Shown here: positions 3,493 through 41,464 of the stretch, piece after piece
How positions within the stretch are numbered: the first letter of the stretch is position 1
How the letters are laid out: each line of letters starts with the position of its first letter
Source: Escherichia coli
Lineage (GTDB): Bacteria > Pseudomonadota > Gammaproteobacteria > Enterobacterales > Enterobacteriaceae
NCBI RefSeq assembly: GCF_011045215.1
Contig: NZ_CP049201.1
Reading direction: 5' to 3' (one strand)
DNA: 64,000 nucleotides
Program-made: the position numbers and the translations under genes
Notes under the pieces: model-generated
The model's database searches: none
Told to the model about the DNA's origin: nothing
What the model saw: only the letters and a program-made list of their open reading frames with translations

Positions 3493-5172
3493 TTATTTAA
3501 TCCACATAACCTGCCAGGGGCGCAGCGTTATTTCATTACCCAATATATCAACTTCACTAATCAGATCGCGACCATGCAGATTAGTAATATTTACATGCTG
3601 AATATTTTTACTGACATTAAACAATCCAGTCAGACAATTACCCTCTGCGTTACTTCTTTGAATACGCATTACGGATGAATTAACCGTATCGATGGTAAAA
3701 TTATTATCCGGATGAAACTCGTTATGGCTGCGACGAAGTGTAATTAAACGCGACAACTCATGATATACCGCATGCCTTAATGTAGCTTCATCGTTCAGTT
3801 CTCGGGTTATCTCTTCACTGTGATATTTTTTACGGTTAATCGCACGGTTATATCCGAGTTTTTCGACACCTGCGTAATCATTACGCGAGCCCAGAATACT
3901 TTGAATATATATCGCTGGCACACCGGGGAAACTTAACAAAATCGCATGGGCAAGGATAAACCTGGCGCAACGTTCTTCATCGCTACTCTCGCGGCGGCTT
4001 AACGCATCCATATAGGTGACATTTATTTCATAGGGACTGCGCGTACCGTCGGGATTATTTTTCCAGTTTACTAATGCACCTTCCTGCTGTAATGCCTCGA
4101 CCAGCGCTAATATTTCGCTTTCTGGTAACAAGCCCCGCAGTGGGTTCAGCCCGATGCCATCGTGAGAGGCGAGGAAGTTAAACCAGGTCGTTTTACCGGA
4201 GGGCAAGCTCAGACTTTGCGCCCACTGGCACAGCGCCTCGACGTTCTGTTTTTGCACCGCATGTAACACCAGCGGCGGCAGCGAGAACTGGTACACCATA
4301 TGCGCTTCGTCATCGCCTTCGCCAAAGTAAGCAATGTTATCTTTATGCGGAACATTCGTCTCAGTAATAATCACCGTACCTGGCGCGATGTCATCAATAA
4401 TCGACCGTAACAGTTTGATAATCAGATGTGTTTTTTCCAGATGGATGCAGCTTGTTCCCGGCTCTTTCCACATAAAGCCAACGGCATCCAGACGGACATA
4501 TTCTGCGCCCTTTTCCAGGTAACAAAGCAAAACATCCACCATCGCCAGCAACACGTCAGGGCTACGGTAATTCAGGTCAATTTGATCGTCGCTAAAGGTG
4601 GTCCATAAATGGCGCGTGGAATTATCATCCATTTGAAACGGCGTTAATAGCGGTAATGCACGCGGACGGGTGACAGCGCTGAGATCGGTTTGCGGATCAA
4701 CCGCAATAAAAAAATCTTCAAAACCTGGCTGCTGTTGTAAATAGTTTTTAAACCATTCACTTTTTGCCGACATATGGTTGCAGACAAAATCAAACATTAA
4801 ATGACTGCATTCACCGAGCTGCTGAATATCCTGCCACTCCCCCGCTTCACTGGCGACCTGATGATAATCAATTACCGAAAATCCATCATCAGATGACCAT
4901 GGATAAAAAGGTAATAAATGAACATGTGAAAAAATGCTTTGCAGCCATTGATGGTAAAACTGATTAAATGTGGGTAGTGGTTTTAAATCATTACTGTGAA
5001 ATTGATCGGCATAGGTAATTAACACGACATCACTTTCATCCCAGTGTTTTTTACGTCGCTGTGTAATTAATCGTTTCGCACTCTCAAGACGCGTTACAAG
5101 TTTCTGTAAATGAGTTGCGGTAAATGTTCCACCGTAGATTTCGTCCAGGTAATCCGTAATTTTCTGTTTCAT
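3493..5172 (-). CDS. ycjM: GH13 sucrose-phosphorylase-family glycoside phosphorylase
   Basis: ORF track gives 568 aa; trimmed to MKQKITDYL start (ATG at 5172, GGAAAGG RBS) giving 559 aa; recognisable YcjM sequence. Confidence 0.9.
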   Translation of the reverse strand: MKQKITDYLDEIYGGTFTATHLQKLVTRLESAKRLITQRRKKHWDESDVVLITYADQFHSNDLKPLPTFNQFYHQWLQSIFSHVHLLPFYPWSSDDGFSVIDYHQVASEAGEWQDIQQLGECSHLMFDFVCNHMSAKSEWFKNYLQQQPGFEDFFIAVDPQTDLSAVTRPRALPLLTPFQMDDNSTRHLWTTFSDDQIDLNYRSPDVLLAMVDVLLCYLEKGAEYVRLDAVGFMWKEPGTSCIHLEKTHLIIKLLRSIIDDIAPGTVIITETNVPHKDNIAYFGEGDDEAHMVYQFSLPPLVLHAVQKQNVEALCQWAQSLSLPSGKTTWFNFLASHDGIGLNPLRGLLPESEILALVEALQQEGALVNWKNNPDGTRSPYEINVTYMDALSRRESSDEERCARFILAHAILLSFPGVPAIYIQSILGSRNDYAGVEKLGYNRAINRKKYHSEEITRELNDEATLRHAVYHELSRLITLRRSHNEFHPDNNFTIDTVNSSVMRIQRSNAEGNCLTGLFNVSKNIQHVNITNLHGRDLISEVDILGNEITLRPWQVMWIK

Positions 5173-23469: not shown

Positions 23470-23514
23470 TCACCTCATTCTGACAAGAGATTAAATCTTG
23501 TCAGAATGAGGTGA
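23470..23514 (+). other. Perfect 19-bp inverted repeat (7-nt loop) spanning the ycjD ribosome-binding site and start codon
   Basis: TCACCTCATTCTGACAAGA-GATTAAA-TCTTGTCAGAATGAGGTGA; no U-tract on either side. Confidence 0.8.
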
Positions 23515-23876
23515 TGGATAAAATAAAATCAAATGCGCGTGATTTAAGACGCAATCTCACTTTGCAGGAACGAAAGCTCTGGCGATATCTTCGCAGCCGA
23601 CGTTTTGGTGATTTCAAATTTCGTCGTCAACATCCAGTGGGGAGCTACATTCTCGATTTTGCTTGCTGCTCGGCGCGTGTAGTAGTTGAGCTGGATGGTG
23701 GGCAGCATGATTTGGCAGTTGCCTATGATACCAGGCGCACTAGCTGGCTTGAGTCGCAGGGCTGGACCGTGCTGCGTTTCTGGAATAACGAGATTGATTG
23801 TAATGAGGTGGCGGTGCTGGAGATTATTCTGCAGGAACTGAACCGCCTGTCACCCTCACCCCAACCCTCTCCCTGA
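23514..23876 (+). CDS. ycjD: DUF559 endonuclease-like protein
   Basis: ORF with ATG at 23514 (the ORF-track start at 23511 is a GTG); 120 aa; last codons lie inside a GC-rich repeat. Confidence 0.85.
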   Translation: MDKIKSNARDLRRNLTLQERKLWRYLRSRRFGDFKFRRQHPVGSYILDFACCSARVVVELDGGQHDLAVAYDTRRTSWLESQGWTVLRFWNNEIDCNEVAVLEIILQELNRLSPSPQPSP

Positions 23877-24135
23877 AAGGGCGAGGGGGCCGACCGAGCC
23901 GAATAGCTGTTGTGGTGAAAACATGGAGGCGGATGATGAAGAATATTCGGCAAGGTCTGAACCACCATTCACTCTTACCCCAGCCATCGCCCTGAAAGGG
24001 TTAGGGGGCTGTATAAGCCTGTTTGTTGCTGGGGTGACAATATTTGCACAATACGGTCCCCACGCCCCTCTGGGGAGAGGGTTAGGGTGAGGGGAATAGC
24101 GCCCACCCTGCCGCACCCTGCTCCGGTCGGACCTG
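23851..24135. repeat. Cluster of three GC-rich palindromic extragenic repeat copies (two direct, one inverted), REP-like, possibly box C family
   Basis: CCCTCACCCCAACCCTCTCCCTGAAAGGGCGAGGGGG, a second direct copy at about 23975-24015 and an inverted copy at about 24062-24098. Confidence 0.65.
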
Positions 24136-24258
24136 GCAACTATAGCCACCCACAGCCAGGTTGATTATAATAACCGTTTATCTGTTCGTACTGTTTACTA
24201 AAACGACGAATCGCCTGATTTTCAGGCACAACAAGCATCAACAATAAGGATTAAAGCT

Positions 24259-25047
24259 ATGGGTTTTCTTTCCGGTAAGCGCATTCTGGTAACCGGTGTT
24301 GCCAGCAAACTGTCCATCGCCTACGGTATCGCTCAGGCGATGCACCGCGAAGGAGCTGAACTGGCATTCACCTACCAGAACGACAAACTGAAAGGCCGCG
24401 TAGAAGAATTTGCCGCTCAATTGGGTTCTGACATCGTTCTGCAGTGCGATGTTGCCGAAGATGCCAGCATCGACACCATGTTCGCTGAACTGGGGAAAGT
24501 TTGGCCGAAGTTTGACGGTTTCGTACACTCTATTGGTTTTGCACCTGGCGATCAGCTGGATGGTGACTATGTTAACGCCGTTACTCGTGAAGGCTTCAAA
24601 ATTGCCCACGACATCAGCTCCTACAGCTTCGTTGCAATGGCAAAAGCTTGCCGCTCCATGCTGAATCCGGGTTCTGCCCTGCTGACCCTTTCCTACCTTG
24701 GCGCTGAGCGCGCTATCCCGAACTACAACGTTATGGGTCTGGCAAAAGCGTCTCTGGAAGCGAACGTGCGCTATATGGCGAACGCGATGGGTCCGGAAGG
24801 TGTGCGTGTTAACGCCATCTCTGCTGGTCCGATCCGTACTCTGGCGGCCTCCGGTATCAAAGACTTCCGCAAAATGCTGGCTCATTGCGAAGCCGTTACC
24901 CCGATTCGCCGTACCGTTACTATTGAAGATGTGGGTAACTCTGCGGCATTCCTGTGCTCCGATCTCTCTGTCGGTATCTCCGGTGAAGTGGTCCACGTGG
25001 ACGGCGGTTTCAGCATTGCTGCAATGAACGAACTCGAGCTGAAATAA
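24259..25047 (+). CDS. fabI: Enoyl-ACP reductase (NADH)
   Basis: 262-aa [42 protein letters not shown]. Confidence 0.97.

Positions 25048-40465: not shown

Positions 40466-41464
<999 letters not shown>

Follow-up and report, generated by a model that had tools for sequence, protein, structure and literature searches.

In the window, i.e., the whole stretch of 64,000 nucleotides of the Escherichia coli contig NZ_CP049201.1 (assembly GCF_011045215.1) that was analysed, the gene ycjD is followed by a spacer with a cluster of GC-rich palindromic repeats and then by fabI (Table 1). The YcjD protein is a DUF559 (PF04480) Vsr-like PD-(D/E)xK nuclease by sequence, scoring 160.5 bits in Pfam against a cut-off of 20.6 and 263.5 bits for NF007294 against 218, and it matches only DUF559 and MTES_1575, with no HUH/Y1 (IS200-like) transposase domain. 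The residues D49, E60, D62, Q65, H66, D73, R89, W91 and N92 are invariant in a 36-sequence alignment, and the enzyme is therefore predicted from sequence to be active.

Table 1. Features of the ycjD–fabI region, in window positions. Numbers with the prefix L denote individual loci carrying DUF559 homologues.
Position	Strand	Feature	Basis
23470..23514	+	Perfect 19-bp-stem palindrome covering the ycjD Shine-Dalgarno sequence and start codon; stands where other phyla have the left inverted repeat	RNA fold -33.5 kcal/mol, z = -8.4
23511..23876	+	ycjD, 121 codons plus stop; the allele 12 nt longer than the K-12 allele	Open reading frame; Pfam DUF559 E = 1.4e-47 over residues 4-111; NCBIfam NF007294; PDB 3HRL (closest solved structure), E = 4e-27; annotated as ycjD in E. 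coli genomes; 12-nt difference seen by alignment with K-12 and described in PMC12817139
23815..23924	+	Unit 1 of a 119-bp tandem duplication: last ~38 nt of ycjD coding sequence, copy 1 and ~37 nt downstream	Repeat search; in K-12 the two units share an identical 22-nt start
23853..23887	-	BoxC/TMECO copy 1, read as the right-hand inverted repeat of the ycjD cassette; on the + strand C block, CAA, C arm, loop, G arm	Exact TMECO pattern match, 0 expected by chance; the same unit ends DUF559 genes in L003, L006, L008 and others
23865..23887	+	Hairpin of copy 1: CCCTCTCCC / TGAAA / GGGCGAGGG, one mismatch in the stem; ycjD stop codon TGA (23874-23876) is the first three bases of the 5-nt loop	Read from the sequence; found as an inverted repeat
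23934..24043	+	Unit 2 of the tandem duplication, a decayed copy of the ycjD 3' end plus its repeat	72% identity to unit 1 over 110 nt
23972..24006	-	BoxC copy 2, a degenerate unit inside duplication unit 2	3 mismatches to the two-block motif; K-12 lacks 13 nt here
24059..24094	+	BoxC/TMECO copy 3, type A (loop TTA), inverted relative to copy 1; corresponds to K-12 TMECO no. 9	Published K-12 list, motif scan and alignment with K-12; the same convergent pairing of [C-C-hairpin] with an inverted type-A unit follows the gene in L003, L006, L015, L017, L018, L021 and L044
24134..24171	+	Border of the variable segment (about 24134), then a fabI promoter-like site (24143-24171); from here on genomes carrying ycjD and genomes carrying eefRABCD are collinear	Alignment with an O157 genome; B2-type genomes; promoter scan

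The preliminary description of this region had reported three copies of a GC-rich imperfect palindrome (two direct, one inverted) filling the spacer, the first of which encodes the last residues and the stop of ycjD, and this observation is confirmed, albeit with corrections. Copy 1 matches the published TMECO pattern CCCTCNCCC N3-6 GGGNGAGGG N3 GGGNGAGGG exactly, whereas no match occurred in 100 dinucleotide-preserving shuffles of the window. On the + strand it reads CCC TCA CCC CAA CCC TCT CCC TGA AAGGGCGAGGG, i.e., the ycjD codons P S P Q P S P plus the stop, so that the unit encodes the last 8 codons of the gene (SPSPQPSP). Copy 3 differs by one base (T to A in the 5' arm) from K-12 TMECO no. 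9, listed at 1,351,204-1,351,239 in Table 1 of Holder et al. 2015 (PMC4666352). Copy 2 fails the pattern and is not an independent repeat, since it lies in the second unit of a direct repeat of 110 nt, spaced 119 bp apart, which begins about 38 nt inside the ycjD coding sequence. In K-12 the two units still share the 22-nt run GAGACGGTGCTGGAGAATATTC, which lies in the ycjD coding sequence in the first unit, and copy 2 therefore arose by tandem duplication of the gene's 3' end together with its repeat. The convergent pair of copies 1 and 3, in contrast, travels with the gene in other genera.

The two-G-block motif with up to 3 mismatches occurs 4 times in the window against 0.34 expected, and 3 of the 4 lie in this spacer, which is the only cluster in the 64 kb. 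Queries containing the units hit a median of 4-6 places per E. coli genome, and K-12 has 23 strict copies; Enterobacter asburiae has ~143 units. The claim that these are not REP/PU units also held, as no REP consensus palindrome (GCCGGATGCGGCG-type; GTAG/CGTC tag) occurs in 23851-24135; a true REP is seen for comparison at flgG-flgF in K-12-like strains. An Rfam scan of the region gave only sub-threshold miRNA-model hits on the unrelated upstream palindrome, and no terminator-like site (a GC-rich hairpin followed by a T-run) was found at any of the three units. The folding energies of the individual units are not better than those of composition-matched shuffles.

The interpretation given in the preliminary description was only partly supported. 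The family name that it had tentatively proposed is right: BoxC was first described beside envM (= fabI) by Bergler et al. 1992 and later renamed PIT and then TMECO (PMC4666352). The consensus oligonucleotide of this family forms an intrastrand triplex in vitro, as shown by CD and NMR, although the triplex was not detected in vivo (PMC4666352). The claim that the last residues and the stop of YcjD are encoded by the repeat is right as well, which departs from the statement that TMECO in K-12 is "always intergenic"; the K-12 unit is truncated by 12 nt and so escaped the pattern search. Not supported, however, is the idea that the tail is a lineage-specific product of a dispersed repeat remodelling a gene end. 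A comparison of YcjD orthologues from genomes lacking the repeat had been suggested as a test, but it could not be applied as such, because wherever the tail was found the repeat was there too.

YcjD homologues at 55-68% identity, from Enterobacter, Klebsiella, Kluyvera, Pseudocitrobacter, Serratia and others, sit in at least five different chromosomal contexts in Enterobacterales and end in PSP(R/Q)PSP, or read on into ..GEG/GRG. In 14 loci, 56 of 56 tail Pro codons are CCC, against 13% CCC in the window's long ORFs, and Ser is always TCA and then TCT. To avoid a bias towards tailed proteins, a tail-less query was run against 1.84 billion representatives, which found 24,200 clusters (at 50% identity), and about 63% of the top 145 have a PxP tail after the domain. 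Subsequently, 80 loci from many phyla were fetched with a tail-trimmed alignment, using search patterns that lie inside the domain. Of these, 66 have a CCCTCTCCC-loop-GGGAGAGGG hairpin 0-150 nt after the DUF559 domain (median +38), where the hairpin density is 6.9 per kb against 0.32 per kb elsewhere, 56 have a hairpin within 150 nt upstream, 50 have both and 8 have neither. The third block of the repeat is more often on the gene side, both upstream (25 versus 8) and downstream (39 versus 14), and in many loci the start codon lies 0-10 nt after the left third block. More distant DUF559 relatives, below about 45% identity, lack the hairpins.

The two ends are ~36-nt inverted repeats that co-vary within a locus: the loop-proximal 8-mers of the left and right repeats are identical in 42% of loci, against 5.6% for random locus pairs, and distinct matched families exist, for example CCCTCTCCC/GGGGTGAGGG and CCTTCCCCC/GGGATGGGGG. 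The peptide, on the other hand, is not what is conserved, since the stop lies before (17), in the loop of (6), in the 3' arm of (3) or after (39) the hairpin, and all three reading frames across the C arm are used (18/7/23).

Several kinds of comparison bear on mobility. Two loci from the same MAG, L067 and L068, share a 502-bp unit at 99.8% identity with unrelated flanks, each copy being flanked by a 9-bp direct repeat, AGTTCAAAA (perfect) in one and 8 of 9 in the other; this was the only pair of recently duplicated cassettes found, a metagenome scan for more copies of the L067 element gave no hits, and in a general scan for flanking direct repeats in 50 cassettes the excess of long matches came from extra motif copies. 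L030 and L079 share 80% nucleotide identity over the cassette only, although they come from different proteobacterial classes. The cassette is rare on plasmids (42 of 72,556 records) and in viral contigs (18 loci), and the PADLOC defence-system models gave no match. Enterobacterial cassettes lack the left repeat and are syntenic within clades, so they are not currently mobile.

Gene-less doublets have the same two ends without the gene. The five K-12 A+B pairs consist of [hairpin-G-G], a 17-30 nt spacer and then [C-C-hairpin], and L062 has three such doublets that match the repeats of its own cassette. No DUF559 coding remnants were seen next to K-12 orphan BoxC units beyond the repeat itself, and no clean empty site or target duplication could be shown for the E. 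coli orphans at the three loci compared. At ygfF-gcvP the whole ygfF+BoxC segment is replaced; at alx-sstT the B2-type strain has a collapsed single hairpin, made from a full doublet by deletion between CCCTCTCCC repeats, and other strains carry a different insert; and at flgG-flgF BoxC alternates with a REP element. Across E. coli, phylogroups A/B1 have ycjD and 19-29 BoxC copies, B2 lacks the gene and has 1-2, and O157 lacks it and has 11. This correlation is suggestive, but it is confounded by phylogeny and contradicted in part by the B2-type remnant at alx-sstT, and is not used as evidence here.

The best reading of these data, to which a probability of about 0.7 is given, is that BoxC (= PIT = TMECO) units are the end-repeats, and miniature derivatives, of a compact cassette encoding the DUF559 nuclease, and that copy 1 is not an intruder in ycjD but the cassette's ancestral, integral right-hand end. 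In this view, the cassette consists of a left repeat [CCCTCTCCC - loop - GGGAGAGGG - nnn - GGGnGAGGG], an ORF of about 110 codons and a right repeat [CCCTCnCCC - nnn - CCCTCTCCC - loop - GGGAGAGGG], with the purine-rich third block of the left repeat lying a few bases before the start codon, where a ribosome-binding site would be. The ORF usually runs into the right repeat, so the C blocks are read as PSPxPSP or, in other frames, PHPNPLP or LTPTLS, and the peptide tail would be a by-product of a DNA element under nucleotide-level constraint. Solo units and doublets would be the same end-repeats without the gene and, by analogy with REP/RAYT and MITE/transposon pairs, the nuclease is proposed to recognise the hairpin- or triplex-forming repeats and to mobilise or maintain them. 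In E. coli, the cassette occupies the sapF-fabI site as the alternative to the eefRABCD operon; it has lost the left repeat, keeps the enterobacterial arrangement of gene, type-B-like unit and inverted type-A unit, and has suffered the 119-bp tandem duplication, whereas the 117-aa K-12 form is derived by a further 12-nt deletion of the outer C block. The analysis itself demonstrates the architecture and its breadth, the co-variation of the two ends, the nucleotide-level constraint, the multiple genomic contexts and the one recent duplication with its 9-bp flanking repeats; that the nuclease is catalytically active, that it binds or cuts the repeats and that it spread the orphan BoxC units is inferred from sequence alone. 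In addition, a lone PD-(D/E)xK nuclease cannot by itself perform strand transfer, so the 9-bp flanking repeats need another activity or host repair, and some E. coli lineages (O157 and B2 strains) keep BoxC copies without ycjD.

The model of the preliminary description, in which a BoxC repeat landed on the 3' end of a resident ycjD in the E. coli lineage and replaced the original C-terminus and stop, is very unlikely. It could draw on the dispersal of BoxC in E. coli, on the position of the tail outside the Pfam domain and on the variation of E. coli alleles at this end, but the same tail with the same nucleotides occurs in homologues in at least five other genomic contexts and in other phyla, so that independent identical insertions at the same codon would be required dozens of times, and the 55-68% protein identity excludes recent transfers of the E. 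coli gene. The alternative that the repeats came first, BoxC doublets being an independent miniature element and the DUF559 gene a homing-type selfish nuclease gene that inserts between the two halves of a doublet, is more difficult to dismiss, although it is also considered unlikely; the flanking repeats would then be the target of the gene rather than its own ends. The gene-less doublets do look like "empty" versions with a spacer exactly where the gene sits, the Vsr/DUF559 clan includes true homing endonucleases such as I-Bth0305I (PMC3424549; PMC3239194), doublets outnumber genes, and BoxC copies persist in lineages without ycjD. However, the unit duplicated in L067/L068 includes both repeats plus 60 and 35 nt beyond them, with the 9-bp direct repeats outside, i.e., what moved was the repeats and the gene together. 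Moreover, the left repeat provides the likely ribosome-binding site and the right repeat the stop, so the ORF is built around the repeats, and no case of a doublet and an occupied doublet at the same locus was found.

It is likewise improbable that the hairpins are purely regulatory or insulating parts of the gene (transcription barriers, mRNA-end stabilisers or translational control of a potentially toxic nuclease), with the orphan units being unrelated look-alikes or decayed gene ends left by gene loss. Such a role would fit the hairpins at both ends of the transcript, the overlap of the left third block with the likely Shine-Dalgarno sequence, the replacement of the left repeat in enterobacteria by another strong hairpin over the start codon, and the single-copy, syntenic state of the gene within clades. 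Against this, PIT elements showed no promoter or terminator activity (summarised in PMC4666352), conservation of the same 9-mer arms across phyla together with co-variation between the ends is not expected of terminators, and both the dozens to more than 100 orphan copies per genome, far from any DUF559 gene, and the 502-bp duplicate with flanking direct repeats need a spreading mechanism.

BoxC has been an orphan repeat family since 1992, without known origin, partner protein or function, and the most detailed study stated that mobility functions were "never found" nearby (Holder et al. 2015). Full-text literature searches on DUF559, ycjD and COG2852 and on TMECO and BoxC found no paper that links the two, so that the present analysis gives BoxC a candidate partner gene for the first time and at the same time links it to DUF559, a very large family of uncharacterised nucleases represented in E. 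coli by the y-gene ycjD. If this reading is correct, the proline/serine-rich or PxP...GEG tails of DUF559 proteins should be annotated as read-through of a DNA element rather than as protein features, and the allelic variation of ycjD (117, 121, 134, 147 residues and so on) would be explained. A bolder reading, which can only be held tentatively, is that DUF559 cassettes of about 0.45-0.5 kb are a previously unrecognised class of minimal mobile elements spanning bacterial phyla, whose only protein, a Vsr-like nuclease, would recognise hairpin- or triplex-forming inverted end-repeats, and which would insert with 9-bp target duplications. BoxC/PIT/TMECO repeats, and similar GC-rich "triplex motifs" in other phyla, would then be their miniature non-autonomous derivatives, which would explain both the origin of BoxC and the genome instability reported at its sites.

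Among described systems, the repeats share with the E. coli BoxC/PIT/TMECO family (Bergler 1992; Hoyne and Maher 2000; Holder et al. 2015, PMC4666352) the sequence pattern, types A and B, the inverted A+B pairing and the instability of the locus between strains, but that family was described without an associated gene, whereas here a full unit overlaps a coding end and the family is tied to DUF559 genes across phyla. REP/REPIN elements and their RAYT genes (Nunvar 2010, PMC2817692; Bertels and Rainey 2011, PMC3116915) likewise combine short GC-rich hairpin repeats, dispersed in tens to hundreds of copies and often as inverted doublets, with a usually single-copy gene that is itself flanked by the repeats and inherited vertically within clades. 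The present data point to a similar repeat/gene partnership, but built on a different enzyme fold: in RAYT the protein is an HUH/Y1 (IS200-like) transposase, not a Vsr-like PD-(D/E)xK nuclease, and RAYT/IS200-type events leave no flanking direct repeats, while here the 9-bp repeats were seen once, the repeats carry a third block with triplex potential and they overlap the ORF's ends. As in MITEs and their parent transposons, gene-less doublets of about 100 bp keep both inverted end-repeats of a longer gene-bearing unit, for which flanking direct repeats were observed; yet no DDE or other recognised transposase is encoded, no target duplication could be shown for the E. coli orphan units, and the full element is only about 0.45-0.5 kb. 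The protein fold and clan (Pfam DUF559/Vsr; PDB 3HRL) are those of Vsr and Vsr-like homing endonucleases (E. coli Vsr; I-Bth0305I, PMC3239194; Caulobacter VsrA, PMC12907096), some of which are selfish, mobile nuclease genes, but there is no adjacent cytosine methyltransferase, no intron or intein context and no known T/G-mismatch role, the conserved partner being a pair of structured repeats. Finally, subterminal hairpins act as recognition elements in IS200/IS605, which use an HUH enzyme and make no target duplication, and the TnsA protein of Tn7 is a PD-(D/E)xK nuclease working in transposition, which needs the DDE partner TnsB and gives 5-bp duplications; neither partner is encoded here.

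The segment examined lies between sapF and fabI in E. coli, and the open reading frame that it contains is ycjD, with 121 codons, a Pfam DUF559 match over residues 4-111, an NCBIfam NF007294 match, and 3HRL as the closest solved structure. The published TMECO pattern CCCTCNCCC N3-6 GGGNGAGGG N3 GGGNGAGGG matches once and exactly (copy 1 in the table), whereas no match occurred in 100 shuffles. On the coding strand this unit reads CCC TCA CCC CAA CCC TCT CCC TGA AAGGGCGAGGG, and it therefore supplies the residues PSPQPSP, while the TGA stop forms the first three bases of the hairpin loop. A second unit (copy 3) differs by one base from K-12 TMECO no. 9. The middle one of the three repeat copies proposed in a preliminary description is degenerate and lies in the second unit of a 119-bp tandem duplication that starts inside the ycjD coding sequence; the two duplicated units are 72% identical, and in K-12 they still share an identical 22-nt start. 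The observation that GC-rich palindromic repeats follow ycjD and supply its last codons and stop is thus confirmed, with the correction that copy 2 is a segmental duplicate of the gene end. One further match to the two-G-block motif, with three mismatches, was seen elsewhere in the window, but it is isolated, has no hairpin partner, and is probably due to chance.

Coordinates of the features in the window and in the other loci that were compared
Sequence	Position	Strand	Feature
Window	ends 23443		sapF
Window	23470-23514		Perfect palindrome with a 19-bp stem, upstream end of ycjD
Window	23511-23876		ycjD
Window	23815-23924		Tandem duplication, unit 1
Window	23853-23887	-	BoxC/TMECO copy 1
Window	23934-24043		Tandem duplication, unit 2
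Window	23972-24006		Copy 2, degenerate
Window	24059-24094	+	BoxC/TMECO copy 3
Window	~24134		fabI-side junction with genomes carrying eefRABCD
Window	24143-24171		fabI promoter-like site
Window	24259-25047		fabI
Window	40718-40738		Isolated 3-mismatch match to the two-G-block motif
L006	4364-4620		Tandem array downstream of a DUF559 gene
L072	~3550-4100		Tandem array downstream of a DUF559 gene
L026	~3650-3860		Tandem array downstream of a DUF559 gene
L062	~850-950		Gene-less doublet
L062	4170-4330		Gene-less doublet
L062	5700-5860		Gene-less doublet
L121	1540-1740		flgG-flgF spacer

According to Holder et al. 2015 (PMC4666352), this motif was first described as BoxC by Bergler et al. in 1992, in the paper on envM (= fabI), and was re-described as PIT by Hoyne and Maher in 2000, before being renamed TMECO by Holder et al. 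themselves. These authors listed 23 copies in MG1655, distinguished types A (loop TTA) and B (loop CCG), and noted five inverted A+B pairs; they stated that the motif is “always located intergenically”, reported instability of the loci between strains, and wrote that they “never found” transposase or integrase remnants nearby. The name and place suggested in the preliminary description, i.e., box C first noted near envM/fabI, were therefore correct. The overlap with the coding sequence was hidden in K-12, which, compared with the window, lacks 12 nt (ACCCTCACCCCA) corresponding to the outer C block, so that YcjD has 117 residues there (...RRSPSP*) and the truncated unit fails the pattern. A 2026 paper on the eefRABCD efflux operon (PMC12817139) notes that ycjD occupies the sapF-fabI site in phylogroups A, B1 and C, and that it is “12 nt longer” in ST69 and ST182, which is the allele carried by the window. 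Since homologues in E. ruysiae and other genera have both C blocks, the long form is ancestral and the K-12 form is a deletion.

The locus is variable in other respects as well. E. coli ycjD alleles of 117, 121, 134, 144, 147 and ~160 residues were seen when the window gene was compared with related proteins (P0002-P0016 in the protein listing), and the longer ones read through into the duplicated unit or into BoxC copy 3, in all three frames, giving tails such as ...PLAPLGRGLG and ...TLTLKGRGG, which looks like recombination between the tandem units. IS421 and IS1 insertions lie in or next to the BoxC spacer in E. coli PSS-16 (L102) and PSJ-32-1 (H17), and in PSS-16 ycjD is a pseudogene with an internal stop. 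In about 2,080 of 5,426 E. coli genomes the best match to the locus covers only the fabI end, and the four that were examined (two O157 strains, R11 and KUN2017-0933; compared through the loci L002, L100 and L101) carry a TetR gene and RND efflux operon (eefRABCD, per PMC12817139) upstream of fabI instead of ycjD and BoxC, with the fabI-side junction just past BoxC copy 3 and ahead of the fabI promoter-like site. At the other end of the gene, the perfect palindrome (RNA fold -33.5 kcal/mol, z = -8.4) buries the ycjD Shine-Dalgarno sequence and GTG/ATG start, and promoter-like hexamers lie inside it on both strands. Enterobacter has a different strong hairpin at the same position, and this arrangement may reflect translational silencing of the nuclease or, alternatively, the structure of the sapF 3′ end.

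Whether the proline-rich tail is specific to one lineage, as had been suggested for a check, was followed by searching with the window protein, which returned 4,302 relatives. Those from Enterobacter, Klebsiella, Kluyvera, Lelliottia, Phytobacter, Scandinavium and others, at only 55-68% identity, nearly all end in (L)PSPRPSP or PSPQPSP, and some read on into ..KGEGE, RGERE or GRGS, which is the translation of the loop plus the G arm. The tail is thus not lineage-specific. Nor are these genes positional orthologues: the gene lies between sapF and fabI in E. coli, between hemW and yggN in Enterobacter, Pseudocitrobacter and RIT691, between an ABC-transporter binding protein gene and yfeX in Klebsiella and Kluyvera, and in two further contexts in Enterobacter sp. 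Ag1 and in Serratia oryzae with [Erwinia] mediterraneensis. In Pseudocitrobacter, two hemW-yggN loci (L018 and L026) have flanks that are 91-95% identical, but the DUF559 segment between them differs in length and in tail (PSPRPSP versus PHPGPLPQGEGEDRR), which suggests cassette replacement at a fixed site.

At the DNA level each of these genes ends in a full TMECO on the coding strand, and the type-B loop “CCG” of Holder et al. is the CGG Arg codon of PSPRPSP. In 14 loci with a PSPxPSP tail, all 56 Pro codons are CCC, against 13% CCC in the long ORFs of the window, and Ser is always TCA and then TCT, and the constraint therefore acts on nucleotides, not on the peptide. In the window and in seven other loci (L003, L006, L015, L017, L018, L021 and L044), the [C-C-hairpin] unit at the gene end is followed 45-210 nt later by an inverted type-A unit, so that the pair formed by copies 1 and 3 travels with the gene. 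In addition, tandem arrays of units of about 74-103 bp, each carrying a CCCTCTCCC/GGGAGAGGG hairpin, lie directly downstream of DUF559 genes in Klebsiella, [Erwinia] mediterraneensis and Pseudocitrobacter (L006, L072 and L026).

To avoid selecting for the tail, subsequent searches were made with the domain only. Against 1.84 billion representative proteins, 24,200 clusters matched, and of the top 145 representatives about 63% have a PxP-type tail after the domain and 43% have PxP followed by G(E/R)G. DUF559 domains also occur inside predicted proteins of 500-1,200 residues (P0123, P0130, P0133, P0199 and others in the same protein listing), some of which may be true fusions and others read-through across the repeat into the next gene, as in the loci L039, L045 and L065, where the ORF continues into an ispE-like gene. 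A tail-trimmed alignment, with search patterns that lay inside the domain, was then used to fetch 80 loci from one-genome-per-species contigs, which came from Enterobacterales, Xanthomonadales, Burkholderiales, Nitrosomonadales, Rhodospirillales, Geobacter, Legionella, Melainabacteria, Nitrospira, Omnitrophota, Elusimicrobia, Deinococcus, Chloroflexi and others. In 66 of the 80, a hairpin with a C-rich 5′ arm (CCCTCTCCC, CCCTCCCCC, CCTTCCCC...) and the complementary G-rich 3′ arm (loop 3-6 nt) lies 0-150 nt after the domain end, with a median of +38, and the hairpin density there is 6.9 per kb against 0.32 per kb in the rest of the 450 kb. A second cluster of hairpins lies just upstream of the gene, where 56 of 80 loci have one within 150 nt; 50 of 80 have both, and only 8 have neither.

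The hairpin alone is its own reverse complement, and its orientation was therefore read from the third block, which is on the gene side (upstream G-side 25 versus 8, downstream C-side 39 versus 14). When set side by side, the left unit [hairpin-nnn-G block] and the right unit [C block-nnn-hairpin] are reverse complements over about 36 nt, i.e., the two ends are inverted repeats, and they co-vary: the loop-proximal 8-mers are identical within a locus in 42% of cases, against 5.6% for random locus pairs, and matched families exist, for example CCCTCTCCC with GGGGTGAGGG and CCTTCCCCC with GGGATGGGGG. The likely start codon often lies 0-10 nt after the purine-rich third block, which is placed like a Shine-Dalgarno sequence. 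The stop of the ORF lies before (17), in the loop of (6), in the 3′ arm of (3) or after (39) the right hairpin, and all three reading frames across the C arm occur, so that the C-terminal peptide is a by-product of reading into a conserved DNA element.

Signs of mobility were obtained from two contigs of one Omnitrophota MAG (L067 and L068), which share a 502-bp unit at 99.8% identity comprising 60 nt, the left repeat, the ORF, the right repeat and 35 nt. The flanks of this unit are unrelated, and in each case it is bounded by a 9-bp direct repeat, AGTTCAAAA on both sides in L068, and gTGAATATT / cTGAATATT in L067. Two further loci, L030 and L079, which come from different proteobacterial classes, share 80% nucleotide identity over the cassette only. 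The cassette is rare on plasmids (42 of 72,556 records) and in viral contigs (18 loci), and more distant DUF559 relatives lack the hairpins.

Gene-less forms were also found. The five K-12 A+B pairs consist of [hairpin-G-G], a 17-30 nt spacer and then [C-C-hairpin], which are the two cassette ends without the gene. A candidate-division FCPU426 contig (L062) has three such doublets that match the repeats of its own DUF559 cassette, and each of these sits inside its own longer outer inverted repeat of 18-24 bp; two of the three share GGAACTATGCACTTGGC and the third is different. The outer repeats may reflect insertion into other palindromes, or a longer element. In E. coli, the alx-sstT spacer holds an A+B BoxC doublet in K-12 (L013 and L097-L099 being the loci compared), whereas a B2-type strain has a single hairpin produced by deletion between two CCCTCTCCC blocks, and other strains carry an unrelated 300-370-bp insert annotated as a hypothetical protein. 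The flgG-flgF spacer (L121, compared with L122 and L123) holds a solo type-A BoxC in some E. coli strains and a classical REP/PU element in K-12-like strains, in the same intergenic slot and with identical borders (GTGACAA ... TGTCAT).

The best-supported reading of these data is that BoxC/TMECO units are the inverted end-repeats of a DUF559 nuclease cassette, and that in solo or doublet form they are its gene-less derivatives. The architecture, its breadth, the co-variation of the ends, the nucleotide-level constraint and the multiple genomic contexts were observed directly in this analysis, whereas it is only inferred that the DUF559 protein, a nuclease by its family assignment, recognises the repeats and spreads them. 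Only one recent duplicate was found, no clean empty site was found for the E. coli orphan units, the enterobacterial cassettes lack the left repeat, BoxC copies persist in lineages that lack ycjD, and a lone nuclease cannot carry out strand transfer, all of which are weak points of this reading. A serious rival is that the gene is a homing-type invader of pre-existing doublets, and a weaker one is that the hairpins are only regulatory parts of the gene. The interpretation in the preliminary description was supported only in part, since the family had been named correctly but the model in which a repeat invaded and remodelled a gene end is excluded.

The BoxC cluster beside fabI was already known. 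In contrast, the coding overlap, and above all the systematic, phylum-wide coupling of BoxC-type repeats to DUF559 genes, was not found in any paper in full-text searches that covered DUF559 and ycjD (COG2852, PF04480), the TMECO, BoxC and PIT elements, and Vsr-like proteins in connection with REP or MITE elements, and it contradicts two explicit statements in the main TMECO study. There is a substantial chance that the cassette represents a new class of minimal mobile element. As a partnership between a repeat and a gene it resembles the REP/RAYT or MITE/transposon pairs, from which it differs in being built on a Vsr-like PD-(D/E)xK enzyme.
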